From: an uncultured cyanobacterium
GTDB lineage: Bacteria; Cyanobacteriota; Cyanobacteriia; Cyanobacteriales; CAWCAG01
Length of the DNA stretch: 64,000 nt
Direction: 5' to 3'
Assembly: GCA_963803805.1 (NCBI GenBank)
Contig: CAWDOD010000003.1
Location: 256,001 to 320,000, forward strand
Positions 37,686 through 59,146 of the stretch are shown here, one piece after another; positions within the stretch are counted from its first letter, which is position 1, and the number at the start of each line of letters is the position of its first letter. The position numbers and the translations under genes were made by a program. A model generated the notes under the pieces. It was given only the letters and a program-made list of their open reading frames with translations, ran no database searches and was not told where the DNA came from.

Positions 37686-39404
37686 ATGGTACTGCATCTA
37701 CTACTTCCTACCCTAGCTCAAATCCCTCCAGATATTCCTCCACAGGATGTCCTTCCCCCTTCACAACAACCTTCCCCTATTCCTGAACAACCAGAAACAC
37801 CTCCTGCACCAGAGGAAGTGCTTCCTGATCCCGCTACACCAATTCCCCCTGAAATACTACCAGATACTCAAGAAACAATTACAGTTACTGAGTTTGAGTT
37901 TGTTGATAATACAATTTTTTCTTCCGAACAGTTAGCTAGGGAAATTACTAATAAATATCTTAATCAAACTCTGTCTTTACAACAACTCCTCAACGTTGCT
38001 GCTGAAGTTGCCCAGTTTTATGCTGCTGCTGGTTACAGTACTTCTGGGGCAGTGATTTCTTTGCCAGAAATTACTCGGCAACAGGGAAAGGGGATTGTGA
38101 GAATTATTGTCATTGAAAGTAGGTTAGAAGCAATTAATCTGGTTCCGGTGGGGAAACAACGCCTTAATCCTAATTACGTGCGATCGCGCCTAGAAGTGGA
38201 ACCAGGAGACATTCTCAATGTCAGCAAATTACAAGAGCAACTGCAATTACTACAACTCAATCCTTTAATTACTAGGGTTGCAGCCCAATTAAGTGAAGGT
38301 TCACAACCGGGGCTAAATCAGTTAGAACTTCAGGTGGTAGAAGCGCCTTCTTTTCGTTTGCCTTTGAGCATTAACAATGGCCGTTCACCCAGTGTCGGGA
38401 GTTTCCAGCGTCAGATTACGGCGAGGGAAGGTAATTTACTGGGGTTGGGAGATGCTCTCAGTGTCGGTTATGGTAATAGCGACGGTAGCAATCTTTGGAA
38501 TCTCAGCTACACTCTGCCGGTGAATCCTAATAATGGCACACTGGGTTTTGACTACAGCTATACAACCAGTGATGTGATTGAACCGCCCTTTGAAGCAGTG
38601 AATATTGAGTCTGAGTCCCAAACATACAACTTAACCTTTCGACAGCCTGTAGTGCAAAGCATTCGTCAACAGCAGTTTCAGGAGTTGGCTTTAGGAGCAA
38701 CTGCTTCTTGGCGCAATAGTCAATCTTTTCTGTTTGATTTTCCTTTTCCTCTCTCTCCCGGAGCAGATGACAATGGTGAAACCCGCATTTTTGCCCTACG
38801 CTTGTTCCAGGAGTGGACACAACAGGATGCCCGTCAGGTGCTGGCTTTTCGCTCGGAGTTTAGTTTGGGTTTGGATGCTTTTAATTCTACTGTGAACGAG
38901 ACTCCAGCAGGTTCAGAAGCGATTCCCGATAGTCGTTTCTTTTCCTGGCGTGGGCAGGGGCAGTGGATCAGGTTGTTGGGGGAAGATACTTTGTTTCTGG
39001 TACGGGGCAATTTGCAACTGGCAAACAAAACTTTATTATCGGCAGAAGAGTTTGCTTTAGGAGGTTTTGGCAGCGTGCGGGGTTATCGCCAGAATGTACT
39101 TTCTACAGACAACGGCTTTTTTGCTTCTGCTGAACTTCAGTTACCGATTCTCAGGGTTCCGGAAGAAGGGGTTTTGCAAATTATTCCCTTCTTAGATTAT
39201 GGCGTAGGCTGGAACAGTTCGGATATTGCTAACCCAGTTCCGCAAACCCTAGTTGGTGCTGGTTTGGGTTTACAATGGCAAGATAGAGCAGGAATTTTTA
39301 ACGCCCGTTTTGATTGGGGTATTCCTTTAGTTAGTGTGGATAATAGGGAGAGAACTTGGCAGGAGAATGGGCTTTATTTTTCGGTGCAATGGAGGGGGTT
39401 TTAA
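37686..39404 (+). CDS. ShlB/FhaC/HecB family TpsB outer-membrane transporter
   Basis: POTRA domains, NNGRSPSVG, NLLGLGD, GGFGSVRGYRQ, terminal F. Confidence 0.93.
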   Translation: MVLHLLLPTLAQIPPDIPPQDVLPPSQQPSPIPEQPETPPAPEEVLPDPATPIPPEILPDTQETITVTEFEFVDNTIFSSEQLAREITNKYLNQTLSLQQLLNVAAEVAQFYAAAGYSTSGAVISLPEITRQQGKGIVRIIVIESRLEAINLVPVGKQRLNPNYVRSRLEVEPGDILNVSKLQEQLQLLQLNPLITRVAAQLSEGSQPGLNQLELQVVEAPSFRLPLSINNGRSPSVGSFQRQITAREGNLLGLGDALSVGYGNSDGSNLWNLSYTLPVNPNNGTLGFDYSYTTSDVIEPPFEAVNIESESQTYNLTFRQPVVQSIRQQQFQELALGATASWRNSQSFLFDFPFPLSPGADDNGETRIFALRLFQEWTQQDARQVLAFRSEFSLGLDAFNSTVNETPAGSEAIPDSRFFSWRGQGQWIRLLGEDTLFLVRGNLQLANKTLLSAEEFALGGFGSVRGYRQNVLSTDNGFFASAELQLPILRVPEEGVLQIIPFLDYGVGWNSSDIANPVPQTLVGAGLGLQWQDRAGIFNARFDWGIPLVSVDNRERTWQENGLYFSVQWRGF

Positions 39405-39438: not shown

Positions 39439-42204
39439 ATGATTGGATTTTGGGGTAAGAATATGATTTTTTTGAAGCAGTTTATTTCTATTTTACTAAG
39501 AGAGTTTTGGGTGTCTAGAAAAGTTATAATTGCATTTTTACTTTCTTTGTGTGTTGCTCTTTCGCCTACTATTATTTTGGCTCAAACTACGCCCCAGGAG
39601 TTGGTTCAGGAGGGAAAGGCTTTTTATGAAGTGGGAAATTTACCAGAGGCGATCGCATCTCTACAAGAGGCTGTCGACTTATTTCGTAGCGCAAATGAGC
39701 AAGAAAATTTAGCAGTTACTTTGACTAATTTGGGTAATATTCAATTAACCCTCGGACAAGCTAATGAAGCTTTAGAAACTTGGCAGCAAGCGCAAACTAT
39801 TTACCAAGATTTAGGGAATAATTCTCATGTTTCCCTAAGCCAAATTAATCAGAGTAGGGCGCTGCAAGCTTTGGGTTTATATCCTCGTGCCTGCAATACC
39901 TTGATACAAGCTTTTCAACTTGCTCCCCTCAACTGTAATAACTTAACGGGGGAGAATTTACAACGGTTAAGGAGCGATCGCTTACCTGTGGTAGTACAGG
40001 TAGCAGGTTTACGTTCCCTGGGCAACTTATTCCGGGGCATGGGTAAATTAGAAGAGTCGGAGTTGGTTTTAGCACAAGCAGTTACTCAAGCTACTTCCCT
40101 TTCTCCCCAAACCAAAGGGGCAACCCAACTTAGTTTAGCTAATACCTTGAGGGCAAGGGGAAACTTAGAACGCGATCGCCTCTCCAAATCAGAGTATCAA
40201 CACTTACCTTGGCGCTACACTCCTAAAAATACACCGGAAGAAGCAGAAACATACTACCAACAAGCTGACAGCAAATATCTAGCTTTGAGTAAAGATGCTT
40301 CCTTGCCTGCTGAGTTGAAAATTAGGGCGCAACTCAATCATCTTAGCCTACTCTTAGAAAGGGGCAAACAAACTCAAACTCAAGACTTAGACATAAACGT
40401 AGAAAATTTACCCCTAAGCCGCAACAAAGTCTATGCCCGCATCAACTACGCCAAAAGCCTAGCTTTCTTACAACAGCAATCCTCTCGTGTCTCCCAATCT
40501 AAAGAGCTTAAGGTAGGGAGCGGGAAACAGGAAAAAGGGAACAGGGTATCTTGGGAAACCGTCACTAACCTACTCAATATCGCTTTAAACGAAGCCCAAG
40601 AATTAGAAGATAGCTACGCCCAAGCTTATGCTTTAGGTAACTTAGGCAGCCTTGATGAGTACTTTGCAACTATTGCCCAGAAACCCACAGAGTCTCAACA
40701 ATGGAACAAACAGGCACAACAGTTAACTGAAGAAGCCTTACTGATTCTGCAACCCCAAGTAAATCCTGAAGCAGCTTATCAATGGCAATGGCAACTAGGC
40801 AGACTCCTAGCTAGTCAAGGAGAAAGAGATGGTGCGATCACAACTTACGAATCAGCCGCCCAAACTCTTGATCAGGTACGCCGTAACCTAATAACTATCA
40901 ACTCTGATGTGCAGTTTTCCTTCCGGGATAATGTCGAACCTTTGTATCGAGAATTAGTATCGTTGTTGCTGCCTAAAGGAGAAACAAATCTCCCTCAAGA
41001 AAATCTTAAAAAATCTCTTTACTATGTAGAAGCCCTGCAATTAGCAGAATTAGAAAATTTCCTACGTTGTACTGTGCAAAATCAGAATAACGAAGGTTTA
41101 TTAGCCGGAGAAACTGATAATCAACAGGCACAAACTGAGCTATTGATTAAGCGTATTAATCGAGTTATTCAAGATGATCCTAATCAAAAAACCGCCTTTC
41201 TTTATCCTATACTTTTACCAGAACAAGTAGCAGTTATTCTTAAGTTACCTAACCAAGAAAAGTTAGCTTATCATCTTACTCCTAAAAATAAAGATGAAGT
41301 AGAAAAAGTAGTTAATAAAGCTACTTTATCTCTAAAAATCAAAGCTGATATTGACCCAAATGAAGAACAACCTCTGAAAGACTTATACCAAATACTATTA
41401 GCAAACTCTATTCCTGATTTAGAACAGGCACAAGCCAAAACTTTAATCTTTATTCTTGACAATGTCTTTCGTCCTATTCCCATGAGTGCTTTACATAATG
41501 GGCAAAACTATTTAGTTGCTCAAGACTATGCTACAGTGGTTGTACCAACAGTCCAATTATTACAACCTCTAAGTTTTCAACCTCAACAACTAACTGCTTT
41601 AATCGGCGGGGCAATTAAACATCGTGATGGATTTAATCCTTTAGAAGAAAACGTTAAATCACAAATTGCTGCCCTTAAGAAACTTTTACCTAATTCTAAA
41701 ATAATCAGTGATGGAAGTTTTACTAAAGCAACTATTCAACAAGAATTAGCTGCTAATTATTATCCAATTCTTCATTTAGTAACTCATGGTAAATTTGCTT
41801 CTGATCCACAGGAAACTTTTATTATGACTGATGATGAAGGCAAAGACTTTGAAGATTACTCCTTGAATATTAATGAATTTGAAAACTTACTCCAAACTGG
41901 CAAGCAAAACCAAGCAATTGAATTACTAGTTCTTAGCGCCTGTGACTCAGCAGAAGGAGACAACCGTGCTGTGTTAGGTATTGCGGGAGTTGCCGTTAAA
42001 TCTGGAGCAAAAGCCACCGTTGCACCTTTATGGACTGTCGACCAAGATTCTTCTAATTTATTAGTTGAAAAGTTCTATGAAAATTTAACTACAAAGGAGG
42101 TTAGTAAAGCAAAAGCATTAAACTTAGCACAACGATATGTATTGCAACAAAGTAATCATATTAGTCCCTATCATTGGGCACCTTTTGTTTTAGTGGGAAA
42201 CTAA
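39439..42204 (+). CDS. signal peptide-TPR-CHAT caspase-like protease (TpsB-linked type)
   Basis: YQWQWQLGRL, QFSFRDNVEPLY, LHLVTHGKF, LVLSACDSA, PYHWAPFVLVGN. Confidence 0.9.
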   Translation: MIGFWGKNMIFLKQFISILLREFWVSRKVIIAFLLSLCVALSPTIILAQTTPQELVQEGKAFYEVGNLPEAIASLQEAVDLFRSANEQENLAVTLTNLGNIQLTLGQANEALETWQQAQTIYQDLGNNSHVSLSQINQSRALQALGLYPRACNTLIQAFQLAPLNCNNLTGENLQRLRSDRLPVVVQVAGLRSLGNLFRGMGKLEESELVLAQAVTQATSLSPQTKGATQLSLANTLRARGNLERDRLSKSEYQHLPWRYTPKNTPEEAETYYQQADSKYLALSKDASLPAELKIRAQLNHLSLLLERGKQTQTQDLDINVENLPLSRNKVYARINYAKSLAFLQQQSSRVSQSKELKVGSGKQEKGNRVSWETVTNLLNIALNEAQELEDSYAQAYALGNLGSLDEYFATIAQKPTESQQWNKQAQQLTEEALLILQPQVNPEAAYQWQWQLGRLLASQGERDGAITTYESAAQTLDQVRRNLITINSDVQFSFRDNVEPLYRELVSLLLPKGETNLPQENLKKSLYYVEALQLAELENFLRCTVQNQNNEGLLAGETDNQQAQTELLIKRINRVIQDDPNQKTAFLYPILLPEQVAVILKLPNQEKLAYHLTPKNKDEVEKVVNKATLSLKIKADIDPNEEQPLKDLYQILLANSIPDLEQAQAKTLIFILDNVFRPIPMSALHNGQNYLVAQDYATVVVPTVQLLQPLSFQPQQLTALIGGAIKHRDGFNPLEENVKSQIAALKKLLPNSKIISDGSFTKATIQQELAANYYPILHLVTHGKFASDPQETFIMTDDEGKDFEDYSLNINEFENLLQTGKQNQAIELLVLSACDSAEGDNRAVLGIAGVAVKSGAKATVAPLWTVDQDSSNLLVEKFYENLTTKEVSKAKALNLAQRYVLQQSNHISPYHWAPFVLVGN

Positions 42205-42276: not shown

Positions 42277-43134
42277 ATGAAATTATTCAAATCATTTTCT
42301 CCAGTTAATAAGCTTGCTTTTCTATTAGCTTGCACTCTCTTTAGTTTTGCGAATATTTTGCCCTTTATACTAGGAGAAAAATCTGTAGCCAGAACTTACA
42401 CCAATGTTCTTAAAGAGGGTGATGGTTCTGAACCTAGTAATCAAATAGTTTTTATTCCTAGAACTCGGCGAGAAGGAGAAGGGGAACCCTATAATCAATC
42501 TTCTGGGGGTACTTATGGTGAAGATCGCTGTCCTCAATCTATTCCTAGCTTAACTGCTTTAGTTCCTGGAAAAGGTTTAGAAGAACCAGAAACTGAACCT
42601 GCGACAACGGAGAAAACTTATTGGTCTATTACTGCTCAAGAATTTCCTACCCTTTGGTTTTATGTTCCTTATCCTACTAGTGGTAAACTTGAAGCTAAAT
42701 TGAAAGTTATGACTAATGAAACTAGAGAAGTTGTTTACAGTAAGATTTATCAACTAAATGGAACACCAGGAATAATTGGTCTGACTATAAAAGATGAAGC
42801 TTTAGTAGTAGGAAAAGATTATCACTGGAGTTTCACTATCATTTGTGATCCTGAAAATAGAGATTCTGATGTTTATGTACAAGGTAAAATTGCCAGAGTA
42901 GCAGCAACACCAAAATTCACTCCTCTGCCTACAGCCAAACCGGAAGAAAAAGTTGATCTTTATGCAAGAGATGGTCTTTGGAATGAAACTTTAACAACTA
43001 TCTTCACCGAGTTATATCCTTCTAATCCCAAACAAGCTAAAGAGTATTTACGGGGCTTGTTGGGGTCAGAATATGTAAACTTAGAAAGTTTAGCAGAACA
43101 ACCAGTTGTTCCTTGTTGTGACTCTTCCTATTAG
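42277..43134 (+). CDS. DUF928 domain protein (exported)
   Basis: Signal peptide; CP..LTALVP, PTLWFYVPY, YHWSFTIICDP, YARDGLWNE. Confidence 0.85.
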   Translation: MKLFKSFSPVNKLAFLLACTLFSFANILPFILGEKSVARTYTNVLKEGDGSEPSNQIVFIPRTRREGEGEPYNQSSGGTYGEDRCPQSIPSLTALVPGKGLEEPETEPATTEKTYWSITAQEFPTLWFYVPYPTSGKLEAKLKVMTNETREVVYSKIYQLNGTPGIIGLTIKDEALVVGKDYHWSFTIICDPENRDSDVYVQGKIARVAATPKFTPLPTAKPEEKVDLYARDGLWNETLTTIFTELYPSNPKQAKEYLRGLLGSEYVNLESLAEQPVVPCCDSSY

Positions 43135-43166: not shown

Positions 43167-43880
43167 TCATTCAACCAAAGGTTCAGAAATAAATTCATCT
43201 AATGAAACATTAGGATCTGATAATAAATCTGACCAATTTTGTTGTAATTCTTGATCTGCTGGATTAAACTTACGAGCTTCGATTAAGGTAGTAATAGCTT
43301 CCGCCCACAAACCTTGTTTGGCATACAAACGAATCCGTTCTTTAATACTACTGTGGGTTATTAAATATTCATCTGTAGTTACTCGTTGAATTACCCCACT
43401 TGCAGCAGCACCAGAAGCTTCAACTCCAGGTTTACAAGTGACTTCTACCCGCCAATTATAAGTACGATTGAGTTCTAAACCTGGCATATTTTTAGGTAAA
43501 GTAATACTGATAATACCTTCACCTTGTTTTATTTCGTAAGTTACATCTGCCACAGGATTATTTGCATCCCCGCTTTCAATGACTAAGTTTACAGTACCCT
43601 CTTTGTAAGGAAAATAAAACCAGAAAGTAGGATATTCTGCTATGGTATTTATTGTATTATCTTTAGGTATCAAAGCAGTAAAAGGTTTGTCTACATCTGG
43701 GCAACCACGTGGTGAAACAGAAGCCGAAGAGCTAACTGGTGGTGCGCCGTTGTTAGGGGGATCATATTCAAGAGGTTCATAAATAGGAATATTTTGACTA
43801 GCAACTGGAGTATTTATACAGTCTTTTCCCGCAACAATAATTAAGCTTAAAGTTGCCAAATAAGTTATTATATTTTTCAT
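43167..43880 (-). CDS. DUF928 domain protein (exported)
   Basis: PRGCP..FTALIP, PTFWFYFPY, YNWRVEVTC, YAKQGLWAE. Confidence 0.85.
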   Translation of the reverse strand: MKNIITYLATLSLIIVAGKDCINTPVASQNIPIYEPLEYDPPNNGAPPVSSSASVSPRGCPDVDKPFTALIPKDNTINTIAEYPTFWFYFPYKEGTVNLVIESGDANNPVADVTYEIKQGEGIISITLPKNMPGLELNRTYNWRVEVTCKPGVEASGAAASGVIQRVTTDEYLITHSSIKERIRLYAKQGLWAEAITTLIEARKFNPADQELQQNWSDLLSDPNVSLDEFISEPLVE

Positions 43881-43923
43881 GATTTAAACTGCCTATTACC
43901 TATTACTTTAGTACTTCCCACAT

Positions 43924-46302
43924 TCATCTCCAATTTTTCACTAATACCCATCCTCCTACACTACTAATCCCTAGAGAAGCTAAGGTCGGTACTAGCGGCA
44001 TCCATCCTCCTTGCTGTAAAAAAGCGAAACAAACGAGATATAAAACTAAAACACCAACTCCTGTATAAATAAAGACTAAAAATGACTTGCGTTCACGGAG
44101 TGTTTCTGGAAGAGAATTGCTTAGAGAGATAATTGTAATACCACTTCCTACTAAAGACCAAATAATTATCCAAAATACTTCTCCTGTTGGCGATAAAGTC
44201 CATAACAAAGGTCGTTTATCTAAGACTGCACTGAGGATTTGACTAGTCATTTGGGCTTGAATATTTACTCCAGACATTTGCTTTAATACTCCGTTACTAT
44301 AAGGAGTAGAAGAATAAGCAGTAGGGTTATAAATGGGGGCAACTATACCAACAATGACAATACGCCCTTTAATTAATTCAGGATCAAAGTTATTCTCCAG
44401 TACTTCACTAAGAGAAATTGTTGAAGCAGCATTTTTGGAACTACGATAATTAAGTAAAATTTGAAAACCACGATTATCTAATTTTTGATAGCCACCACTA
44501 TTAGGTTGTAAACGTTCAAATATTACATCACCAAGTTTGACACGATTTCTATCTATTGTTTTCGGTTCTATTCCTTCTAAACTTAGGTATTGTGAGGCTA
44601 ACTGAAAACCAAAAGAAAAGCGAGTAGTACACCCATTTTCTAAATCAGAACTCATAAACAAAAGATTACGGCGTAAAACTCCATCGAATTTGTCTAACAG
44701 TATATTGCTAAATCCTAAACTTTCTTCAGTTAATCCAGGGGGTGAAGAGATACCTGGTTGGTTGGGGTCATTTTTAGTTAATTTAACATTACATAAAGCA
44801 ACTAATTTATCATCATTTTGTAAAAGATTAAGTAGTTTTTGATGACCTGATTTGATGGGGCGATCGCGAAAAATCGATAAACCAATTGTGTGAGGTTTAT
44901 GTTCTTTTATTACCTCGATAGTTTCAGCTATTGTGCCATCAGAAAGGGGATAACCATAACGATTAATATCTTCTTCTGTGGCTTCAACTACTAATAAACG
45001 AGGATCTACTCCTTCATCAGGACGCATCCTCATTAACCAATCAAAAGCTTTAAATTCCCAAGCTTGGAATAAACCAAAAGAACGCAATACTATCACTAAC
45101 ATTCCTATCAGTAACCCGAAGGTAATTACTCCCCCTTTACGAAGTAATAAATCGCGGGGAGATAGTACGGGAGGATTACATAATTGTTCCCAAGTAGGAG
45201 GTTGGACAGACCAATGTTGACACACTACAGGTAGCCAACTGGCACAGTAATATTGGTCTTCTATATCTTTGAGCCTTTCTCTAGCTTTTCTAACAGCTAA
45301 ATAAAAAGATTTCCCTTTAGAAAAATTGGCGATAAATTCTGCTAAAAATTCCTGGGCGACGCGATTTTGTACTTGTTCGCGCATCACAATAACTTGGGAA
45401 ATTCCTAATAGTTCTAGTTGAGGAACTAACCCTAAACCTTGACAGGAATTAAAAATAGCTAACTGTAAACCATTTTCAATTGCTACTTGTAATGCTGCAT
45501 TTAATTCAGATATTTCTAGCTTGGTATTTCCATTAATACTAATCCAACCTTTTTGAGCATTAGACTTACTATGGCCGGCATAAAATAAGATATCCCAGCC
45601 TTGTTCATCTCTTAGGCGATCGCAAATTTGTTGACGGGAAGGTTGAGTCAGAATTTCTAAGTCTATCTGCCGGTTACTTCTGAGGGTATGTAAATCTGCT
45701 TCTGGATCTATATTCTGACAATCTCCAACAATAGCTAAAATCCTGACTCTTCCAGCCGCAGTTGATAACTTTTGCTTGGAAGAAAATCGAGGCGCACTTA
45801 AAGCTACTTCTGCTTTAGGATACTTCTTAAAAAAGTCCCATTCCTGCCAAGGTAATTTCCTTAATATTTCGTGATCGGTTTGAATTATAAAAACAACTTC
45901 ATCTTCAGTATTAATATTAGTACGTAAAGCTTGATCAATGGGCTGAAATTCTGGTGAATTGAGCCACTTATTAAGAGTTTCTAATAAGTAAGTAGGTAAT
46001 TCAGTGGCATTTTCTTGATTGCCTCTTTCAATACCATCATTAGAAAATTCTAATACTCTGGGTCTAAAATCAAGCCCTGCCTCACCAAGATTGTCACTAA
46101 GAAAACTACTACTATGACCAATAAAATCTTGATATAGCCATTGCCATCTCTGATAAGTTGTTTGAATTTCCTGGTTAGGGGGCAGACCGCCAGTATCTAT
46201 TTCTTCTAGTAATTCAGCCCCTTTATAAACGGTAACAACAAGATTAGAAAATCCTGCTTCTAAACTGCCATTTCCTAAGCGCAAAGAAATAATTTTTCTC
46301 AT
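43924..46302 (-). CDS. CHAT protease-TM-CHASE2-3TM sensor
   Basis: LPWQEWDFF, DILFYAGHS, AIFNSCQGLG, VIVMRE, ASWLPV; TM; CHASE2 (DPRLLVV, IFRDRP, DGVLRR, MSGVNIQAQ); three C-terminal TM helices. Confidence 0.88.
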   Translation of the reverse strand: MRKIISLRLGNGSLEAGFSNLVVTVYKGAELLEEIDTGGLPPNQEIQTTYQRWQWLYQDFIGHSSSFLSDNLGEAGLDFRPRVLEFSNDGIERGNQENATELPTYLLETLNKWLNSPEFQPIDQALRTNINTEDEVVFIIQTDHEILRKLPWQEWDFFKKYPKAEVALSAPRFSSKQKLSTAAGRVRILAIVGDCQNIDPEADLHTLRSNRQIDLEILTQPSRQQICDRLRDEQGWDILFYAGHSKSNAQKGWISINGNTKLEISELNAALQVAIENGLQLAIFNSCQGLGLVPQLELLGISQVIVMREQVQNRVAQEFLAEFIANFSKGKSFYLAVRKARERLKDIEDQYYCASWLPVVCQHWSVQPPTWEQLCNPPVLSPRDLLLRKGGVITFGLLIGMLVIVLRSFGLFQAWEFKAFDWLMRMRPDEGVDPRLLVVEATEEDINRYGYPLSDGTIAETIEVIKEHKPHTIGLSIFRDRPIKSGHQKLLNLLQNDDKLVALCNVKLTKNDPNQPGISSPPGLTEESLGFSNILLDKFDGVLRRNLLFMSSDLENGCTTRFSFGFQLASQYLSLEGIEPKTIDRNRVKLGDVIFERLQPNSGGYQKLDNRGFQILLNYRSSKNAASTISLSEVLENNFDPELIKGRIVIVGIVAPIYNPTAYSSTPYSNGVLKQMSGVNIQAQMTSQILSAVLDKRPLLWTLSPTGEVFWIIIWSLVGSGITIISLSNSLPETLRERKSFLVFIYTGVGVLVLYLVCFAFLQQGGWMPLVPTLASLGISSVGGWVLVKNWR

Positions 46303-46325
46303 GATATTTATACCAATGCACCAAC

Positions 46326-47303
46326 TTAAACGATAAATTCTTCAGTTAAGCTAGCCATCCCTAAACTAATCCTAAGTTTGAACTTGTCTCCTGGTGAGCA
46401 AGTGAATTCTGGTAATTGAATGAAATAATCTCTCCATTCAGATTTGACTTCTTTAAGAGGTTTTTCTGCTTCAGAAAGTATTTCTAATTTTAAACTTAAT
46501 GGTAAGTGTTTCTGTCCGGAAGCTGGATATAAACGAGCGCGAATTTTGAGCTTTTCTCCTGATTGTGGTGTGATCGTTATCATTAACATTACCCCTCGAT
46601 TAGCCAAGTTAATTTTCAAGTCAATCAACTTGGCTTTATCAATAGTACCAGTACTATTTCTCGGCATATAACTGAGATTTTGGGGTTGTCTTAGCAACAA
46701 CTCTTCAGCATCTTGCCAGCCCTGTTGCAGACTTGCTTTAGTATCTTTAAACCACTGTCCTAATACCACTACTTTTTCTTCAATTGTTTCACTCAGACTT
46801 TGAGTAGTAACTTCATATTGTTCCTGTTGGCTAAGATATTCAGGAAAATCTTCTAAAGAACGTAATTGCTCAAAAGAAACAACTCCTTCTGTTTCTTCTA
46901 CTGAAGGTACAAAACCGATAATATGTTGTTGCCTTTGAGATTCATTTATATAAACAAAAACATAACCAATACGGTTTTGCCAAGCATCAGGGGGAACATA
47001 AATATCTTCGTCTGAGGAAATGGCGCGACATTCTAACTTGCCGTGATTTTTGACTTCTAAATCTGCTACATTAGCAAAGCTAGACATGACCGGATCATGA
47101 AAGTCGCTACTATCCCAATCTGTTTCATAACCTAATAGTTCTAAATAGTCTTTAACAACACATACCGCCAAAATGTTATAGTAAAACTCCTTAGCTTGAT
47201 TTGAATTTAATTTCTTTTGACTCAAGTTCTTCGCTACTTCTTGATGAGAAAAAGTTAAGTCAATAGGAAATGTTAAATTGTCAGTTATTGCCTCGATGTT
47301 CAT
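46326..47303 (-). CDS. DUF1822 family protein
   Basis: YYNILAV..V..YL, VADLEV..GKLECR, DAWQNRIGYVFV, LGQWF, AKLIDL, LYP...LP..LKL. Confidence 0.85.
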   Translation of the reverse strand: MNIEAITDNLTFPIDLTFSHQEVAKNLSQKKLNSNQAKEFYYNILAVCVVKDYLELLGYETDWDSSDFHDPVMSSFANVADLEVKNHGKLECRAISSDEDIYVPPDAWQNRIGYVFVYINESQRQQHIIGFVPSVEETEGVVSFEQLRSLEDFPEYLSQQEQYEVTTQSLSETIEEKVVVLGQWFKDTKASLQQGWQDAEELLLRQPQNLSYMPRNSTGTIDKAKLIDLKINLANRGVMLMITITPQSGEKLKIRARLYPASGQKHLPLSLKLEILSEAEKPLKEVKSEWRDYFIQLPEFTCSPGDKFKLRISLGMASLTEEFIV

Positions 47304-47323
47304 TACTTATTGCTCCTAGTTGA

Positions 47324-48292
47324 TTATTGCAAAATCTCTCTCAAATACGTTTTAACTTTGCTTCGCTCTCGATAATAGAAAGTGCTGATGGTGCTTTGGG
47401 GAATATTCCATTTCTGGGACAGATTTTCAAAAGTCTCTCCTTCCCAATAAAGACCGATTAAAATATCGGCAAAGGTTTTCTTGGTAATTTTTCTAATCCT
47501 TTTATTTAACTTCGGATGTTCTTTAACAAGGGTTTTTAGTTCTTCTGACCTTTGGTGGCAAGCAAATTTTTCTTCGTAGTTTCCTGGTTGATTAGAAAAA
47601 GTTCGCGAAGTAGGATCTTCAATCTTGATTAAGACTTTATCTTCTTGAGCTTTACGAGATTGACTTTTTTTGAGTCCTAAAATCTGCCCAGCAGCATCAG
47701 GAAATTTCTTAGCAATCCAGTAATTTACCAAAGCCATAAAATCTTTACTTTCGTCGTATTCGCTAATCCTTTTCAAAGTATAGAGAATAGACTCTTTTTT
47801 TGCTTCGTAAAATGCCTCCTCGTAATCTCGCTTTGATAAATTGAAACTTGCCCCTAGTCCTACTCTTTTATAAACATTTTGTGTGTCCATGGCTTTAAGT
47901 AGCCACTGGGTATAAGTTCTCCTTTGAGGAGAATTTTCTGGAGTATGTTTGACTTTGGCAGCTAGAGTATTGATAAAGTTATCTGTGATTAATTCTTGCT
48001 CGTATTTGCGTTTCAGAATAGCTGCTTCTTCGGTCAAAGATTTAGCTATTTCCAAACAATTGGTGGTTTGATTAAGTTGAGATTCAAACAAATCCTCAAT
48101 ATTCTGCTTGAGTTCTGATTTAATTGCTTGAATTTCTCTGGTAAATAGTTCTTTAAGCTCCTGGTTTCTCCACCAACAATATGTAGATAACTTTTCAATA
48201 ACCTTTGTTTTAATTGCTATAGCCTCCTCACTCTCAGGTCTAGATTCTTGATACTTTTTGAGTAAATCACTGATCTGTATTGGTTCCCTCAT
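47324..48292 (-). CDS. sigma-70-like / HTH protein associated with DUF1822
   Basis: HTPENSPQRR, YEEA..E, ISEYD..FMALVNY (region 2-like); EGETFENLSQKWNIPQSTISTFYYR (region 4 HTH-like). Confidence 0.6.
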   Translation of the reverse strand: MREPIQISDLLKKYQESRPESEEAIAIKTKVIEKLSTYCWWRNQELKELFTREIQAIKSELKQNIEDLFESQLNQTTNCLEIAKSLTEEAAILKRKYEQELITDNFINTLAAKVKHTPENSPQRRTYTQWLLKAMDTQNVYKRVGLGASFNLSKRDYEEAFYEAKKESILYTLKRISEYDESKDFMALVNYWIAKKFPDAAGQILGLKKSQSRKAQEDKVLIKIEDPTSRTFSNQPGNYEEKFACHQRSEELKTLVKEHPKLNKRIRKITKKTFADILIGLYWEGETFENLSQKWNIPQSTISTFYYRERSKVKTYLREILQ

Positions 48293-48578
48293 ATTTCATG
48301 GTACTCATCTGGATTTACTCAATTATTATCTCAACTACTATAAAATGTCCCTACTACTCGCCATAAGTAGCGAAAGTTTACGTAAGTGCATTTCCGCATC
48401 TGAGAATTTCACCAGCATCTATTTGTATTTCTCATAAAGCAGCGCAATTTTATGCAAAATTTGGGAAATATATTTAATTCTCTTACCCAAATTAAATTTG
48501 ATAGGTGGCTAATGGCTAGTGGCTAGTTGCGAATAATCCTGTCTCCCCGTCTCACTAACAACACTTGCACTCTAACTA

Positions 48579-49139
48579 CTACTCTTTTAACCAAGCAAAT
48601 ATTTCACTTACCTTAAGCTGTAACCCTTGGGCAAACTCTGGCACTGGCAACACCGTTTCTCCCTCAAACACCTGCACTGGTTGATTGGCACTATAAACAA
48701 AAATGCACAATTCCTCCGGATCTACTAACCAACCCATCTCCGTACCATAATCGAGACAATGAAGAATGTTAAGGATTACCTTGCTTTGTCTTTGATTAGG
48801 AGAAAGAATTTCTATTGTCCAATCCGGCGGAATATTAAAAGCATTTTCTACTCTTCCGTCAGGCTTCCGAGGTATATTATCCCACTGAAAAACTGACACA
48901 TCTGGTACTATAGAGCGTTTTCCGAAAGTACAACGTAACTCTGGATAAGCACGAGCGACTTTCTTAGGCTTCAAAGTGCTATTAACAGTACTGACTAAAT
49001 CCCCTTGCAGTGTGCTATGTTCTCCCTGGGGCATGACTTTCTGAATAATTTCTCCCTTAATATACTCGCTAGCGGGTTTCGTCTCTGGTAACTCCAGGAA
49101 TTTCTCTAAGGTTAGGAGTTTTGTGGGTGTCTGTACCAT
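48579..49139 (-). CDS. Uma2 family endonuclease
   Basis: LPETKPASEY, PQGEHS, PELRCTF, SIVPD, PDWTIEILSP. Confidence 0.92.
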   Translation of the reverse strand: MVQTPTKLLTLEKFLELPETKPASEYIKGEIIQKVMPQGEHSTLQGDLVSTVNSTLKPKKVARAYPELRCTFGKRSIVPDVSVFQWDNIPRKPDGRVENAFNIPPDWTIEILSPNQRQSKVILNILHCLDYGTEMGWLVDPEELCIFVYSANQPVQVFEGETVLPVPEFAQGLQLKVSEIFAWLKE

Positions 49140-49223
49140 AGGACTACTTTTCCGTTGTAGAATCAAAGCTAGCTTATAGCTTCCGATTATAGCTTATGGC
49201 AGATTAGTGTTTAATGTATAGAC

Positions 49224-49296: not shown

Positions 49297-52041
49297 TTAC
49301 TTACTTCCCATCGAACTCCAAGCCCCAGAAGGAATAAAAGCCGCCCAAAAATAGGGATGGGCATACTGATTACTGTTCAACATCTCCAACTGTACTTGCC
49401 GCAGCGCTTCACTCCTGCCCTCTTGGTTAAGCAAACGCTGGTAATACTTCACCATTAAATCCTTCGTACCATCATCAGAAACATTCCACAAACTCATCAC
49501 CTGACTCTCTGCCCCTGCCATCACAAAAGCGCGACGTAAACCGTAAACTCCGTCACCGTTGGCTACTTCCCCTACCCCTGTTTCACAAGCAGAAAGTACC
49601 ACGAGTTTTGTCCCTCGCAGGTTTAAACCTGTGGCTTCCAGGGCAGTTAGTACCCCATCTTCTGTACCGCTTTGTTTGTTATTAAACCCAGCAAGGGCTA
49701 AACCGGAACGGAGGAGGGGGTTTTCCTGGGGAACTTCAGGACGCTCAAAACCAGGACGTTCATAGATGCCGACAATACCTCTATCGTTAAAACTAAAACT
49801 GTTATCTGCTTCAGCAACCAGCTTTACTGGGAGGAAAAAGCCGTGGGTAGCGATGTGGAGGATATTAGGGCTATTTACTTGTTTGACTAGGTTTTCTGTG
49901 GCTTGGGTTTTGGTGAATAACTGCACATCTGGTAAGATTTGCTGCAATGCTTCTGCTTCTGCGGCAGTGCCAGGTAAAGCACCAAAGGATATTTGGGAGA
50001 TGTCCCCGGAACGTTGGTTAGTGCTACGGGTGTTGCTGGCTAGTTGAATGTTGGTTTCCCCAGCTTGGTTATATGCCGGATCTGCTAAGACTATTGCTCC
50101 CTGGTTATTGGGGTAGTTGTTTTGCAGGCGGATTAAATCTCTGCCTGTGGTGAGGTAGGTGATGGTGTAGTTTTCCACCAGGTATTGCCCATTTTCATCT
50201 ACTAAGGCAGCAAAGGGAATGAGGTTAAGTTGGCTGTCGGGGGAGAGGAGGATGTTTTTCTTATTACCCAGTTTATTGCGGATGGGTGCTGTGACTAGTT
50301 TGTCTAGGTTGCGTCCGATGGTGGTGGCATTAGAGGATTGGTTTTGTAGGGCTTGGCGGAATTGTTGAACAGCTTGGTTGATGGGTGCTGCTGGGCCTAA
50401 GTCTACCCAGTCTATTTCGCCTGTGGGTTGGAGGATGTAGGCGGCGTAGTGTAGTGCTTCCCATTTGTTTTCTTGAGCATTGTAAGGTTTGTAGGAAACT
50501 ATTTCTACTAAGGCAGCATTTGCAGGAACGAGTTTTTGCACTGCCTCAATGGTGACAGGTTCGTTAATTTGACGAAACTCAATGCTACGTTGGGCGAGTT
50601 GATTGGCTAGGTTTTGTTCTTCTGCTTTGAGTGTGGCTATTTGTTGGCGATAAACTTCGGGATCTGTTTCTCCTAAGCCTTGGTAGAGGAGGGCTGCTAG
50701 TTGGGAGCGTTTGTTTGCTAGTTCATCGAGGAGTTGTTGGTTTTCTGGCGTTAAGTTGTCGCGGATGAGTTGGATGTTTTCTGTAGTTGCATCGAGTATT
50801 CTGCCTTTGCGACGGAGGAGGGTTTCTAGGGCGAGGTTTGCTGCTTGGGAGTTGGTGGGTAGGTTTTGTAAGTGGAGGCTGAGAGCAATATCTGTTGTGT
50901 TCTTGATAGTGGCAAGGTAGGCTTTTTTTCTAGTTTCAGAGCCGATACTAAGGTTAAGGGAAAGGTTTTCTTCTTCAATATTGAGGCTGCGAACGAATAA
51001 TTCTAATGAACGGTTGGGGTTATTTTGCTTTTGATGCAGCACTGCGAGATTACTGAGATTTATTGCTACGTTGGGATGATTTTCTCCCAAGGCTTTTTCC
51101 CAGATATTGAGAGAGCGTAGTAACAGAGGTTCGGCTGCTGCGTAGTTCCCTTGGCTTTGGTATAACGATGCGAGATTGTTAAGACTTGCGGCTACGTTAG
51201 GATGATTTTCTCCCAGTGCTTTTTCTCTGATTTTGAGAGAGCGTAGTAACAGAGGTTCGGCTGCTGTGTAGTTCCCTTGGCTTTGGTACAACGATGCGAG
51301 ATTGTTAAGACTTGCGGCTACGTTAGGATGATTTTCTCCCAGTACTTCCTCACCGATATTGAGGGAACGAAGGTAGAGAGGTTCTGCTACTGTATAATTT
51401 CCTTGATATCTATGCAGTAAAGCTAATTCATTGAGGCTGTTTGCAACATCAAGGTGGTTAGGATTAAGAACCTTTTCTCTAATGCTCAAAACCTCTTCAG
51501 CTAAAGGAATTGCTTGGCTATATTGACCTTGCTCTCTAAGTTCCATTACTCTTTGCTCAAGCTTCTTTGCTTTTGCTAATTCCACCTCAGAAGTAGTAGC
51601 AGACCGCCGAGCCAGCAAGTAATTTCCTGTTTTTCCTGCTTCGAGAGTTGTAACAGTAATTGTGTAAGTGTCAGTGACCGGTAAAGTAACAACAATTTTT
51701 GCATTATTGCCTTCGCCACTATTATCATCTGCGTCAATTAAGTTTTTTGCTGAATCAATAAGTACCAAGAAAACATCAAATTCTGTGCTATTAAGCTCAA
51801 TAACTATCTGTTCTCCTTCTTGCCCCTCGAAAGTGTGAATGTTGTAATAATGCTCTTCCTCAAAAATATTACTCTCACTATCCAACCTCCCCCTAATTGT
51901 CGTAACTTCCCTCTCCTCAACCTCAGCAGCCTCAACACCTTGCCCAAAAACTGGGGCTGGTTTCTCCACCAACACACCAAAACCACCCAAAGCAACCATC
52001 ACCCCAAGCAATAATCGCTTCTTAAAATTGCTGCTGCCCAT
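49297..52041 (-). CDS. signal peptide-PPC-TPR-CHAT caspase-like protease
   Basis: PPC-like domain (FEGQEGEQIVIEL..FD..L..DDNSG), 42-aa TPRs (LGENHPNVA.SLNNLA), LHIATHGFF, LSACETG, HPYFWAAF. Confidence 0.92.
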   Translation of the reverse strand: MGSSNFKKRLLLGVMVALGGFGVLVEKPAPVFGQGVEAAEVEEREVTTIRGRLDSESNIFEEEHYYNIHTFEGQEGEQIVIELNSTEFDVFLVLIDSAKNLIDADDNSGEGNNAKIVVTLPVTDTYTITVTTLEAGKTGNYLLARRSATTSEVELAKAKKLEQRVMELREQGQYSQAIPLAEEVLSIREKVLNPNHLDVANSLNELALLHRYQGNYTVAEPLYLRSLNIGEEVLGENHPNVAASLNNLASLYQSQGNYTAAEPLLLRSLKIREKALGENHPNVAASLNNLASLYQSQGNYAAAEPLLLRSLNIWEKALGENHPNVAINLSNLAVLHQKQNNPNRSLELFVRSLNIEEENLSLNLSIGSETRKKAYLATIKNTTDIALSLHLQNLPTNSQAANLALETLLRRKGRILDATTENIQLIRDNLTPENQQLLDELANKRSQLAALLYQGLGETDPEVYRQQIATLKAEEQNLANQLAQRSIEFRQINEPVTIEAVQKLVPANAALVEIVSYKPYNAQENKWEALHYAAYILQPTGEIDWVDLGPAAPINQAVQQFRQALQNQSSNATTIGRNLDKLVTAPIRNKLGNKKNILLSPDSQLNLIPFAALVDENGQYLVENYTITYLTTGRDLIRLQNNYPNNQGAIVLADPAYNQAGETNIQLASNTRSTNQRSGDISQISFGALPGTAAEAEALQQILPDVQLFTKTQATENLVKQVNSPNILHIATHGFFLPVKLVAEADNSFSFNDRGIVGIYERPGFERPEVPQENPLLRSGLALAGFNNKQSGTEDGVLTALEATGLNLRGTKLVVLSACETGVGEVANGDGVYGLRRAFVMAGAESQVMSLWNVSDDGTKDLMVKYYQRLLNQEGRSEALRQVQLEMLNSNQYAHPYFWAAFIPSGAWSSMGSK

Positions 52042-52941: not shown

Positions 52942-53403
52942 TTAAAGAAAAACCCCCGCAAGAAAGACGTTTTTATCATCTACCAATTCCAAAATCTGGT
53001 TGAATTTAGCAGAAAGTCCAACCACACGGGGCTGTTGAGACTTATCCAAACCTTGATACCATTGAGAAGTCATCATTTCCTCAATACTGGGTAATTGACC
53101 CCCTGCATACTCCATGAGAAAGTTCTGCACAATCTCTTGATCACTTGCAGGGAGAGTGGCAGACCATTCTTTGTAAATAGCCACAGCTAAATCACTACCT
53201 GATTCAACTTCGCTAGTATCAACATTATCTAAATTGATGCCTAAGCTTTCTCCTATGACTTCTGCCTCTCTAATTGTAGATTTTGTTACGTTGATTATGT
53301 TAGTTACGTCTTCTAGAAAATCAAACGGCCCTGCAAATGCAGGTGCTGTAACTGTAGTAGCTAAGATTAGGCTTACTGGAATGGCAAAGTACTTAAAAGA
53401 CAT
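52942..53403 (-). CDS. exported acidic hypothetical protein
   Basis: Signal peptide ending APAFA; 153 aa; no family recognised. Confidence 0.7.
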   Translation of the reverse strand: MSFKYFAIPVSLILATTVTAPAFAGPFDFLEDVTNIINVTKSTIREAEVIGESLGINLDNVDTSEVESGSDLAVAIYKEWSATLPASDQEIVQNFLMEYAGGQLPSIEEMMTSQWYQGLDKSQQPRVVGLSAKFNQILELVDDKNVFLAGVFL

Positions 53404-53633
53404 AACAAATTTCTCACACTAAATTTTTGGGATAAGAGCAAACTGTGTAGATGTGAATCTCTAATCAGTAGCTCTTACTTTTGATTTATCTAGGAAGCCT
53501 TTTCATTTACGCAAAATTTCCAGATTTTTTTGAGGAGATTGACAGCCCAATGTTAAAACCCTTTGAAATAGGCGCTTACAGATTTTCTACTTTGTTCCAA
53601 ATCAAGAATGTTCCTTTCCCAATCTAAGTTAAT

Positions 53634-54015: not shown

Positions 54016-57000
54016 TTAATCCGCTTCCCCAATTAAAGTAAAAGCGGCCCAGTTTTTTGGTTCCGGGTGTTGCTTCATCGTTACTAACATCGCTTGTCGC
54101 AACGCCTGGGCTTTATCAGGATTTTTCTCTAATTGATTGTAAAACTCCACCATCAACTCTCCTGTAGGAGCATCAGGTACTGCCCATAGAGAAACTAAGA
54201 CGCTGGGAACTCCAGCACTAATAAAGGAACGGGATAAACCGATTACTCCATCTCCGGTTATTTTGCCCCTGCCTGTGTTGCAAGCGCTCAAAACTACTAA
54301 TTGGGCTTGCAAGTTCATCTCGTAGATTTCTGTCGCTGTCAGGAGTCCGTTGCCTGGAGAAGAATCGGGGGCGAGGGCGATCGCACTTCCCATTCCTTGT
54401 ACATCGTCTAGTAAGCCGTGGGTGGCCAGGTGAATTAAGTTAGCGTTGGTCATTTGTTTGACTATGGTGGATTTGGTGGCTTCGTTACCGGTGAAGGGTT
54501 GGGTATTTAGTAGAGGTGCGATCGCCTTCGCTTCTTTTTCTGCACCAGGAAGGGAGGCTAATTGTATAGCGGGTTCGAGGGGGTCATCTTTGACCTTGGG
54601 CATGGTGGGGTTGCCTACTACTAAGGCATCTCCGGTTGCTGTTGTTTTTTGCTTTTGTTCCCTGGTTAGTTGCAAGGTTTGGATAGAGGGGGCGGTGAGG
54701 ATGGTGTGTTTTTCGATGAGGTAGGTTCCGTTTTCGTCTTGTAGGGCAGGGAAGGGAGTCAGGAAGAGGGAACTTTGGGGAATGAAGATGACTTTCTCCT
54801 TGGGGTCAGTGGGTAGTAAATCGGCGATGGGATCAATGAGGAGGTTGTGTAGGCGGTTTAAGCCATCTTTGTAGGGTTCAAATCCTGGTCTGGGTTTGAT
54901 GGCTACTTCGTCGCGGTTGAGGCTGCGGAGGGGTAAGCCCTGTACTCCCAAGGCGATGCGAGTGTGGGTAACAAGTTTGGCTAAGGAGGTGTTTTCTTGT
55001 TGCCAGAGGGGTTTAAGGTTGCTGCGACGGAAGGTTATTTCTCCGGTGGGTTTGACTATCCAGATATAAAGTTCTGCTTCTTTAGTTTGTTGCTTTCCTT
55101 CAATGCTGAAATTATCACCAATTAGGGAGTATTCAACTAAGGTGGCATTTTGCTGTTGGGCGATTTGTTTGATTTGTTCGATGTTGGGTGGTGTTATGGT
55201 TGTTGGGAAGGAGTTGTCTTGGTTGGCTAGGCGTTTGGCTAATAGCTCTACAAATGCTCTGGCGCGACCTCTTTCTGAAATTTCAAGGGCTTCATTGGTT
55301 TTATTTTGGGCAATTAGGACTTCTTGAATATTGCGATAAGTAGCAGCTTGCTGTTCAAAAATGGAAATTTTAAAGTCATCATTGTCACCTAAAAAACTCC
55401 TGGTTTCTTCAAAGTACTCAACGGCCTGCCGTAAAGTTTCTTCTGCCTCTGTTAGCTTACCAAGTTTAAACAATGACATTCCCAAGTTATTGAGCGATCG
55501 TGATGTACACTTTTGAGCCCCGGTTTTTTTAGACTTAGCCAAGCTTTGCCGAGAAAAATTTATAGCTTGGGTGTAATCTCCAAGAGATGAGTAAGCACTA
55601 CCTAAATTGCATAAGATAGAAACTTCTCCGGAGAGATGGTTATTTCTTTGAGCGATGGCTAATGCCTGTTTATAATAGTTAATTCCTTGAGTATAATTTC
55701 CTTGTTTAGTGTAAGCAATCCCTAAATTGTTTAGAGTCATTCTTTCTATATCTTTATCACCATTTTCTTGAGCAATTTTCAAAGAATTATTTAATACTTG
55801 AATTGCTCGATTATTATGTTTTAAAGTCGTTAAAATGTCACCAAGATTAAGAAAAGAACGCATTAGTATATTGCGATCGTTGATTTCTTGAGCGATGCTT
55901 ACAGATTTCTCAATATGGGCAATAGCCTGTTCATACTTCCCTATTTCTGTGTAAGAGACTGCTAAATTTAGAAAAAGAGCTCCTTCATGTTTTTGATCAT
56001 TAATTTCTTGGGCAATTAATAAAGCTTCTTGGTAAATTTGAATTGCCTGAGCATAATGCCTCATTCCACTGTAAGCGTTTCCTAAATTCATCAAAATTAA
56101 TGCTTCATTGTGACGATCACCAAGTTCTCGGAATATACTCAATGCTTCTTCCCAAGATTTTATAGATTCCTGAAATAGGCTGTTGCTATATTGCTCAAAT
56201 CCTTGCTCGAAAAGTTGCTTCACTTTTGCTCTTTGTTGAGTAGCTAGCAAGCCTTGTTGGGCAGATTTTTCTATCTCTATATCATCAACTTGTTTGGCAA
56301 TAGCTAAACTCTGTTGAAAAGAAACGATTGCCTGAGTATAGTCATCTTTTATTATGTAAATATCACCAATAGAAATCAAAAGTCTTCCTTGGTGAGAGAT
56401 ATCATCTAACTCTTGTGCAATTGCCAAACTCTGCTGGTAGTAATTAAGCGCTTCATCGTAATTTTTTATAGCTGAGTACGTATTTCCTAAAAGATCTAAA
56501 ATATCACCTCTCAATTGATAATTATTAATCTTTTGAGCAATGACTAAACTTTGCTGTAAACTATTAATACCTCGGTTATAATCGCCCTTTATTGTATAAA
56601 TTTCTCCAATATGAAATAATATTCCTCCTTGGGCTGCTATCAGATCTAACTCTTGTGCATTTGCCAAACTTTGCTGATAGTAATTCAATGCTTTATCATA
56701 ATTTCTCAGAAGTAAGTAATTATTTCCTAAGAGGTCTAGAATTTGACCTTCTGTATCTTGATGATTTAGTTGTTGAGCGATAACTAGACCTTGTTGTAAG
56801 GCATTTATGGCTTTAGTATACTCACCTTTTATTCTGTAAATGTAGCCAATATAAAGTAGAATTTCCCCTTGAGGTGCAGCAATGTCTAACTCTTGTGCTA
56901 CTGCCAAACTTTGTTTGTAGTAATCAAGTGCTTCATCATAATTTTCTAGGACTAAGTATGCGCTTCCCAAAAGTCCTAGAACCCGACCTTGCATAGGATG

Positions 57001-59054: not shown

Positions 59055-59146
59055 CGGCGTAAATCCCACAAAGAACAAAAAGCTAAATATCCCATTTACT
59101 TATTACTTATTACTGAGGTTTACAGACGCTGATTGCGTAAATCCTG

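Follow-up and report, generated by a model that had tools for sequence, protein, structure and literature searches.

What can a receptor of the CHASE2 type control when its only large part outside the membrane and the CHASE2 sensor is a caspase-like protease module? The question is raised by a locus in a 64,000-nucleotide stretch of DNA from an uncultured cyanobacterium (assembly GCA_963803805.1, contig CAWDOD010000003.1, positions 256,001 to 320,000; the whole stretch is called the window, and positions refer to it unless another contig or locus is named). According to the list of open reading frames (ORFs), four ORFs on the minus strand form one block at 43167-48292, with intergenic gaps of 20, 23, and 43 bp. 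In reading direction, they encode a divergent extracytoplasmic function (ECF)-type sigma factor of 322 aa (47324..48292), a DUF1822 protein of 325 aa as candidate anti-sigma factor (46326..47303), a CHAT-CHASE2 membrane protein of 792 aa (43924..46302), and an exported DUF928 protein of 237 aa as candidate periplasmic partner of CHASE2 (43167..43880). The first-pass annotation of the window had described four tightly spaced, co-oriented genes at these coordinates, exactly where they are found. This arrangement recurs in other cyanobacterial genomes and in paralogous copies within the source genome, and the recurrence is far beyond chance. We give an even chance to the reading that the locus represents a cyanobacterial system, widespread and present in several copies per genome, in which a CHAT protease fused to a sensor would control a divergent ECF-type sigma factor through its DUF1822 partner.

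The first product had been annotated as sigma-like, and its sigma fold is borne out by a family profile, by the Pfam matches of its relatives, and by structure comparison with VIA-align. A word-based search finds only five close relatives, and a profile of these five, run against 1.84 billion representatives, gathers 177 proteins at E <= 0.001. The relatives are mostly 205-250 aa long and align to query positions 103-328; the ~100 residues before this region are thus an extension borne by a subfamily. Among 108 aligned relatives, Sigma70_r2 and Sigma70_r4_2 are matched in 26 each. Moreover, the family profile matches solved ECF sigma factors, with SigE at E 2.8e-5 followed by RpoE, SigK, and SigW (E values up to 1e-3). 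The AlphaFold2 (AF2) model has a predicted local distance difference test score (pLDDT) of 87.3 and is all-helical. It comprises the N-terminal helical extension (residues 1-102; 47987-48292), a sigma2-like domain (103-207; 47672-47986), a linker that is disordered at residues 217-245 (pLDDT <50), and a sigma4-like domain (240-322; 47327-47575). When the model was compared with 48,161 chains, the best match of residues 104-207 was the ECF sigma2 domain of SigW (Z 8.5, root-mean-square deviation (rmsd) 3.1 over 88 residues), followed by CnrH, BldN, and SigK at Z 7.9-8.0, while residues 240-322 matched sigma4 domains at Z 6-6.5. The domain content is sigma2 and sigma4 only, with a linker between them, as in ECF (group 4) factors. 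Sequence and predicted structure combined, the 322-aa product is accepted as a very divergent ECF-type sigma factor.

Two relatives, P0059 and P0052, carry the sigma-like domain in larger proteins. It stands at the C-terminus of a protein kinase with a TRADD-like N domain in one (685 aa) and is joined to a GUN4-containing protein in the other (1153 aa). Through these fusions, the family is connected with the proteins that Kaur et al. 2021 call 'ECF-like HTH'. At another locus (L041:6443-6927), the sigma-like gene is broken into two ORFs of 118 and 60 aa, which suggests a frameshift or an assembly error.

The gene set was followed through a scan of one genome per species, which yielded 577 DUF1822 relatives. 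The best 80 loci (L018-L097) were used, all named ones being cyanobacterial, and their genes were called with local hidden Markov models built from the paralogues of the source genome. Wherever at least 700 nt precede DUF1822, the ORF immediately before it is sigma-like (68 of 68 loci). Downstream, a gene for the N-terminal module and CHAT (hereafter N-module-CHAT) follows within 600 nt in 57 of the 69 loci with at least 2500 nt on that side, at gaps of a few tens of bases. Of the N-module-CHAT genes, 50 are complete and have at least 1500 nt of following sequence; CHASE2 is present in 39 of these and absent from 11. DUF928 comes after 33 of the 39 CHASE2 forms vs none of the 11 others (Fisher p 3e-7, a value that exaggerates the contrast, the loci being related and picked for their likeness to the query). 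Additionally, DUF1822 was detected in 198 of the 301 genomes sampled from the phylum vs none of 14 control genomes. The source genome holds seven full DUF1822 paralogues and, as an eighth Pfam match, a 77-aa fragment. Every one of the seven is preceded by a co-oriented ORF (211-585 aa), counted as its sigma gene, and four stand directly before an N-module-CHAT gene, two of these with CHASE2 and DUF928 and two with TPR. At a fifth, a two-partner secretion (TPS) gene and a TPR-CHAT gene intervene before the N-module-CHAT gene, all on the same strand. A long same-strand series in this genome (L006/L005, C9:66048-82893, minus strand) runs from a 585-aa helix-turn-helix (HTH)/sigma-like gene through DUF1822-HEAT, a 2492-aa TPS gene, and TPR-CHAT to CHAT-CHASE2 and DUF928.

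A promoter-like motif accompanies the sigma genes. Within 251 nt upstream of 73 sigma-like genes, TGC[AG]TAAA occurs before 38 vs 16 on the reverse strand, the mononucleotide shuffle having a mean of 0.87 and a maximum of 4. The bipartite form GT[AG]AC-N14-18-GC[AG][TG]A[AG]A is found in 15 of the 73 vs 2 on the reverse strand (shuffle mean 0.13). The consensus, TTTTGTAACA-N~15-TGCRTAAAA or TGTAAC-N15-TGCRTAAAA (written also TTTTGTAAC-N15-TGCATAAAA), looks like an ECF promoter. When 300 nt upstream of each gene were counted by class, TGC[AG]TAAA was present at 35/68 sigma-like genes, 12/73 DUF1822 genes, 5/72 N-module-CHAT genes, 3/37 DUF928 genes of the 80 loci, 2/31 TPS genes, 0/47 exported CHAT genes, and 0/9 genes for ShlB-type transporters, vs 38/2997 ORFs of at least 200 aa in the source genome. 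Four of the five N-module-CHAT matches have the full bipartite motif (L051, L053, L073, and L087), and all four genes are detached from the DUF1822 gene. In the window, the -10-like half, TTGCATAAAA within TTTTGCATAAAAT, lies at 48448-48457 on the minus strand, ~155 nt upstream of the sigma ATG, and the closest orthologous locus (L019) has the same element (TTTTGCGTAAAAT) at the same place. This distribution points to autoregulation of the system and gives no support to control of TPS genes. The earlier proposal that the sigma factor transcribes the neighbouring TPS genes is thus not upheld, and ShlB and exported CHAT genes, tried as targets likewise, lack motif support.

Genome-wide, the loose bipartite pattern has 16 matches vs 21 in the reversed sequence, and only long intergenic matches stand out. 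These long matches in the source genome lie at C7:207561-207587, C9:83123-83150, C10 ~160996, and C11 ~206860. The genes after them encode a GT4 glycosyltransferase, an AMP-binding enzyme, and two Na+/H+ exchangers (one an exchanger-Usp protein), and they are leads only. The AMP-binding enzyme gene diverges from the operon of the 585-aa sigma-like protein and DUF1822-HEAT. In the covered part of Strecker et al. 2022 (PMC10028731), nhaA is the top CASP-sigma motif match outside its own locus; the shared link to a Na+/H+ exchanger may be coincidence. In the window, TGCRTAAA has 9 matches vs 6 expected. One of them, the -10-like AAATTTTGCGTAAAT at 53506-53513 (minus strand), lies ~100 nt upstream of a 153-aa ORF (52942-53403, minus strand) with a signal-peptide-like start and no family match, and it is only a lead because the window-wide count is near chance. 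Scans for sigma-70 promoters and terminators gave chance-level results.

The second gene encodes a DUF1822 protein (Pfam E 4e-58) whose AF2 model (pLDDT 82.7) shows an alpha+beta domain to residue ~150, then a helix (150-168), a linker of poor model quality, and a beta-sandwich at 220-325. With VIA-align, residues 34-166 match best the nuclease I-Ssp6803I (Z 9.7, rmsd 2.9 over 115 residues). Hjc resolvases (Z 6.2-7.7), D212, NhoI, DpnI, and RecU are further matches, and the top seven are all nucleases. The core alpha-beta-beta-beta-alpha-beta arrangement of the PD-(D/E)xK fold is found in the modelled N-terminal domain (residues 1-166; 46806-47303, minus strand), at a middling Z score. D81 starts the strand 81-84 and E91-C92-R93 lie within the strand 88-95, which are the canonical positions of the PD-(D/E)xK motif, and conservation among the 83 homologues is almost complete (D81 83/83, E91 82/83, C92 83/83, R93 80/83). 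The C-terminal Ig-like beta-sandwich (residues 220-325; 46329-46646, minus strand) has generic Ig-like matches only. No solved sequence relative of DUF1822 was found in the PDB profile search (best E 0.28), and no helical anti-sigma domain (ASD) is among the VIA or Foldseek matches listed. One DUF1822 paralogue of the source genome carries inserted HEAT repeats. Profile comparison of the N-terminal domain with the 44 Uma2 nuclease-like proteins of the genome gave no match (hhalign probability 0.18%).

Known anti-sigma factors, as in complexes of the sigma E-RseA type, insert between sigma2 and sigma4. A comparable docking is predicted here. The complex of the sigma factor and DUF1822, modelled with custom alignments of 78 and 83 rows, reaches interface (ipSAE) scores of 0.83, 0.83, and 0.84 vs 0.00 for the best control, as would be expected of the sigma-anti-sigma pair that the first-pass annotation had supposed. 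In a benchmark, 116 of 157 solved complexes scored this high, as did 2 of 215 mismatched pairs, a calibration that is rough for custom alignments. The runs share at least 85% of contacts, and partner pLDDT is at least 76. In the model, the N-terminal domain of DUF1822 sits between sigma2 and sigma4 and touches the sigma factor through residues 2-158 only. The sigma side of the interface comprises residues 2, 37-43, and 87-95 of the extension, 120-136 and 155-173 of sigma2, and, in sigma4, 242-253, 278-288, and residues at intervals of three or four along 303-321. One face of the 155-173 helix and one face of the last sigma4 helix (303-321) are covered. Such docking resembles the mode of action of the Class I ASD, not its fold. 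The score is unlikely to be recall of a solved complex, as DUF1822 has no solved sequence relative. The complex model supports binding of the two proteins without demonstrating it.

The same fold gives rise to the rival that survives best, a conflict or programmed-cell-death system in which DUF1822 would be the nuclease effector, the sigma-like protein would restrain or target it, and the caspase would unleash DNA cleavage instead of a programme of transcription. This explanation draws on the nuclease fold with its seven best matches led by I-Ssp6803I, on the near-invariant D81, E91, and R93 at canonical strand positions outside the sigma interface, on the fusions of sigma relatives to a kinase with TRADD-N and to GUN4, and on the placement of the class neighbourhoods among conflict systems in the covered part of Kaur et al. 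2021 (PMC8195603). However, the catalytic D...(D/E)xK motif is not complete, since D81...E91-C92-R93 has Arg in place of the catalytic Lys in 80 of 83 homologues, and Gln occupies the helix-1 position, also in 80 of 83. Furthermore, DUF1822 has no sequence similarity to any nuclease family (Pfam, PDB), the genome holds seven copies, and the conserved, strand-specific promoter-like motif at the sigma genes fits a working sigma factor. A nuclease effector is considered unlikely, and the reading of DUF1822 as a candidate anti-sigma factor is preferred.

The third protein joins the protease to the sensor. Its cytoplasmic N-terminal module (residues 1-165, presumed EACC2, for which no model exists among the family libraries searched) is followed by a CHAT/caspase-like protease (167-356; Pfam CHAT E 4.6e-13). 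The dyad of His244 (codon 45571-45573, minus strand) and Cys287 (45442-45444, minus strand) is invariant in 51 of 51 aligned homologues. A hydropathy scan places hydrophobic segments at residues 385-415, 707-728, 739-767, and 770-788. The first corresponds to transmembrane segment TM1 (45058-45150, minus strand) and the last three to the C-terminal transmembrane segments (707-788; 43939-44184, minus strand), with the periplasmic CHASE2 domain between them (399-719; 44146-45108, minus strand; Pfam E 2.6e-59). Basic residues directly before TM1 agree with an N-terminus in the cytoplasm. The chain stops at residue 792, four residues after the last hydrophobic segment, so there is no C-terminal kinase or cyclase, as had been noted before, and the N-terminal 384 residues are the only large part that is neither membrane nor CHASE2. 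The N-terminal module has invariant W113, P151, W152, and W155 and occurs in six paralogues with differing C-termini. It remains constant together with CHAT, while the C-terminus may be CHASE2, TPR, or another type. In the PDB, a profile of the CHAT-CHASE2 family had no match at E <= 0.1. The topology of one transmembrane segment, periplasmic CHASE2, and three transmembrane segments is shared with the CHASE2 receptors whose output is a cyclase, a histidine kinase, or a Ser/Thr kinase, but in those the output domain is C-terminal, whereas here it is the N-terminal protease. The source genome also encodes CHASE2-cyclase, CHASE2-HATPase, and CHASE2-Pkinase proteins.

The fourth gene belongs to a family that is scarcely mentioned in the literature searched. 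A hydrophobic, signal-peptide-like stretch at the N-terminus is present in the DUF928 protein of the block (Pfam E 1e-44) and in all aligned DUF928 proteins. Of the ten DUF928 genes in the source genome, three come after CHAT-CHASE2, two before CHASE2-cyclase, and two after an exported TPR-CHAT gene, while two stand in tandem before a Peptidase_S9 gene and one is alone; DUF928 thus adjoins a CHASE2 gene in 5 of 10 copies. A second set was anchored on DUF928 itself and comprises 30 loci with flanks of 1.5 kb to either side. Among 31 genomes of the order, 29 had a match and supplied these loci, as a rule with the best match per genome, although one genome gave two. A CHASE2 gene adjoins DUF928 in 18 of these 30, in either order or divergently. 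The other neighbours are exported-type CHAT (9), TPS (4), and ShlB (2) genes, and none of these is present in three loci. The linkage extends across output types, and DUF928 therefore accompanies CHASE2 whatever the output domain. A periplasmic partnership of DUF928 and CHASE2 is a candidate for which gene linkage is the best available support. An Atlas search with DUF928 returned DUF928 clusters only.

From these elements, a path from the envelope to transcription can be proposed. DUF1822 would hold the sigma factor through its N-terminal nuclease-fold domain, placed between sigma2 and sigma4 as predicted. CHASE2 may sense a periplasmic signal together with exported DUF928, as the gene linkage suggests, and the signal would activate CHAT in the cytoplasm, probably by drawing copies of the protein close to each other. 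CHAT might then cut DUF1822 in the inter-domain linker or disable it otherwise, and the freed sigma factor would transcribe from promoters of the TGTAAC-N15-TGCRTAAAA type, its own operon first; the motif is observed, and its use in this way is presumed. A bolder version appears distinctly improbable to us. In it, exported TPR-CHAT/TPS proteases would act on DUF928, which would be the first identified CHASE2 ligand or co-receptor, CHASE2 would activate the caspase by proximity, and the caspase would cut DUF1822, which would represent a new anti-sigma class on a restriction-endonuclease fold, after the conserved linker Arg, so that a self-amplifying ECF-like sigma factor would be freed. A role in cell-cell or kin sensing is conceivable, given the multiple copies of the system in filamentous cyanobacteria.

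The cleavage step is the point at which a second rival departs, namely that the sigma factor and DUF1822 are controlled without cleavage of DUF1822, through self-processing of CHAT, cutting of the sigma factor in its N-terminal extension or its 217-245 linker, or partner switching in which the N-terminal module captures DUF1822. The sigma factor does have a disordered linker (217-245) and a 102-residue extension that contacts DUF1822 in the model. In the covered parts of two sources, autopeptidase activation is proposed (Kaur et al., PMC8195603), and the PCaspase of a CRISPR-linked system cuts the sigma factor itself (Steens et al. preprint). Against this, the extension is missing from most family members (205-250 aa), and the variable linker of DUF1822 has conserved basic residues. 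R215 (codon 46659-46661, minus strand), at the 'SYMPR/NST' site earlier proposed for cleavage, is Arg in 63 and Lys in 11, together 74 of 83 homologues, and R223 is R or K in 70 of 83. Control without cleavage of DUF1822 is rated as quite improbable. Two separate modules lying side by side, a sigma/DUF1822 pair and a CHASE2/DUF928 envelope module tied to exported CHAT/TPS proteins, are very unlikely, for although DUF928 is found beside CHASE2-cyclase genes far from any sigma gene (L009, L010), often adjoins exported CHAT, TPS, or ShlB genes, and 12 of 69 sigma/DUF1822 loci have no adjacent N-module-CHAT gene, the close adjacency in the other 57, the constancy of the N-terminal module and CHAT under a varying C-terminus, and the sigma-type motif at detached N-module-CHAT genes all speak against it.

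Several observations also weigh against the preferred reading, in which DUF1822 holds a working sigma factor under the control of the fused CHAT protease. The sigma-like protein of the window has no Pfam match, and its only family match, NCBIfam TIGR02937 (sigma70-ECF), scores 24.5 bits, below the cut-off of 42.9. Foldseek against the PDB gave nothing at E <= 0.001 for the sigma model or for the DUF1822 model, and the VIA Z scores of 8-10 for these models are only middling. Upstream of the window sigma gene, a TGTAAC -35 element at the consensus spacing was not found, only the -10-like half being present. Conservation of the D81/E91/R93 site away from the predicted interface hints at a further role of DUF1822, possibly an enzymatic one. 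Besides the loci that lack an adjacent N-module-CHAT gene, two sigma/DUF1822 pairs of the source genome have none nearby. Finally, the counts from the 80 loci are not independent, as the genomes are related and the loci are the closest matches to the query.

Release of an ECF sigma factor by proteolysis of its inhibitor after an envelope signal is well known from RseA/DegS/RseP-sigma E and RsiW-SigW, where the inhibitor likewise lies between sigma2 and sigma4. RseA and RsiW are membrane proteins, whereas the candidate inhibitor DUF1822 is soluble, and its top fold matches are nucleases, not anti-sigma domains. Moreover, the protease here is a cytoplasmic caspase-like domain on the sensor itself. 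The comparison closest to the locus is the class described in silico by Kaur et al. 2021 (eLife, PMC8195603). In the part of that paper covered here, a constant EACC2 and caspase module is combined with a variable C-terminus, including CHASE2 flanked by transmembrane segments. Most neighbourhoods without TRADD-N also encode an ECF sigma factor and DUF1822, and a stimulus-induced autopeptidase activation that ends at the sigma factor is proposed. The window shares the His-Cys caspase, the variable C-terminus (as CHASE2), and the adjacent ECF sigma and DUF1822 genes. Since the locus belongs to this predicted class, the central caspase-to-sigma idea is not new; the three-gene core neighbourhood and the concept are already in print as a prediction. 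The novelty of the CRISPR-independent caspase-to-sigma signalling proposed for the locus earlier is thus weakened. No cas family is found among the ORFs annotated at 26.4-62.3 kb, no search for a CRISPR array having been made. Kaur et al. call DUF1822 'a TPR protein', whereas the model here has nuclease-like and Ig-like domains, and no TPR appears in the model or in Pfam matches of the window protein. DUF928, the promoter motif, and anti-sigma docking were not found in the searched text of Kaur et al., and eight searched supplementary files contain no DUF1822, CHASE2, or EACC2.

Caspase-to-sigma control is known from CRISPR-linked systems. In Type III-E, according to the covered part of Strecker et al. 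2022 (PMC10028731), the TPR-CHAT protease Csx29 cuts Csx30 and thereby frees CASP-sigma. The N-terminal domain of Csx30 binds the ECF-like sigma factor, and CASP-sigma autoregulates genes of its locus. The likeness lies in the CHAT protease, the sigma inhibitor, and an ECF-like autoregulating sigma factor. The trigger differs, as it is crRNA-guided RNA binding by Cas7-11 in Type III-E, whereas the protease of the present locus forms one protein with a periplasmic CHASE2 sensor. In CalpL-CalpT-CalpS and SAVED-CHAT/PCaspase/PCc-sigma, as described in the covered part of the Steens et al. preprint, the target of a signal-activated protease is a sigma factor or sigma/anti-sigma pair. Unlike the present locus, these systems sense cyclic oligoadenylate by SAVED, employ Lon or a second caspase, and are linked to CRISPR or to the cyclic-oligonucleotide-based anti-phage signalling system (CBASS). 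No experimental study of DUF1822, DUF928, or CHAT-CHASE2 proteins was found in the literature searched. What is new here is the nuclease-like fold of DUF1822 with its predicted anti-sigma docking, DUF928 as a general companion of CHASE2, and the promoter-like motif of the family. If the proposed mechanism were true, caspase-like proteases would control bacterial transcription outside CRISPR immunity, CHASE2 would gain a testable partner protein, and the known anti-sigma scaffolds would come to include a nuclease fold. The system is common, given the phylum-wide DUF1822 counts and the seven copies of the source genome. Moreover, every step of the mechanism is open to direct tests through the predicted interface, the conserved Arg of the linker, and the promoter motif.

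The block lies in an island at 27.9-57.2 kb (27919-57246) that holds exported-type CHAT and TPS genes. Four TPR-CHAT proteins (Pfam) with signal-peptide-like N-termini are encoded at 27919-30675, 39439-42204 (plus strand), 49297-52041 (with a PPC domain), and 54016-57246, a TPS exoprotein of 1569 aa at 31347-36056 (Pfam), and a ShlB-type transporter at 37686-39404 (plus strand; Pfam). The segment 37686..43134 on the plus strand, composed of the transporter, an exported TPR-CHAT gene, and a second DUF928 gene, forms the convergent neighbours of the block, and this context is recurrent, although the motif was not found upstream of these genes. The second DUF928 (42277-43134, plus strand) comes directly after the exported TPR-CHAT gene and is convergent with the DUF928 of the block; TPR-CHAT followed by DUF928 is also seen at L011 and in several other genomes. 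DUF928 adjacency of this kind hints that the family is also related to exported CHAT proteases. Of 43 related loci of at least 14 kb, 23 contain exported CHAT or TPS genes. TPS genes often stand directly after DUF928 on the same strand. A local search of the source genome finds ~30 exported-type CHAT, 18 TPS, and 9 ShlB genes. Just upstream of the sigma gene lies a Uma2 gene of the PD-(D/E)xK type (48579-49166, minus strand). It was rejected as a component of the system, being near four of eight sigma/DUF1822/EACC2 loci in the source genome (the window, L001, L003, and L007) but near only 4 of 80 elsewhere; the genome carries 44 Uma2 copies. Beside the island, at 58155-59078 on the minus strand, lies a PDDEXK_2 'nuclease family transposase' gene.

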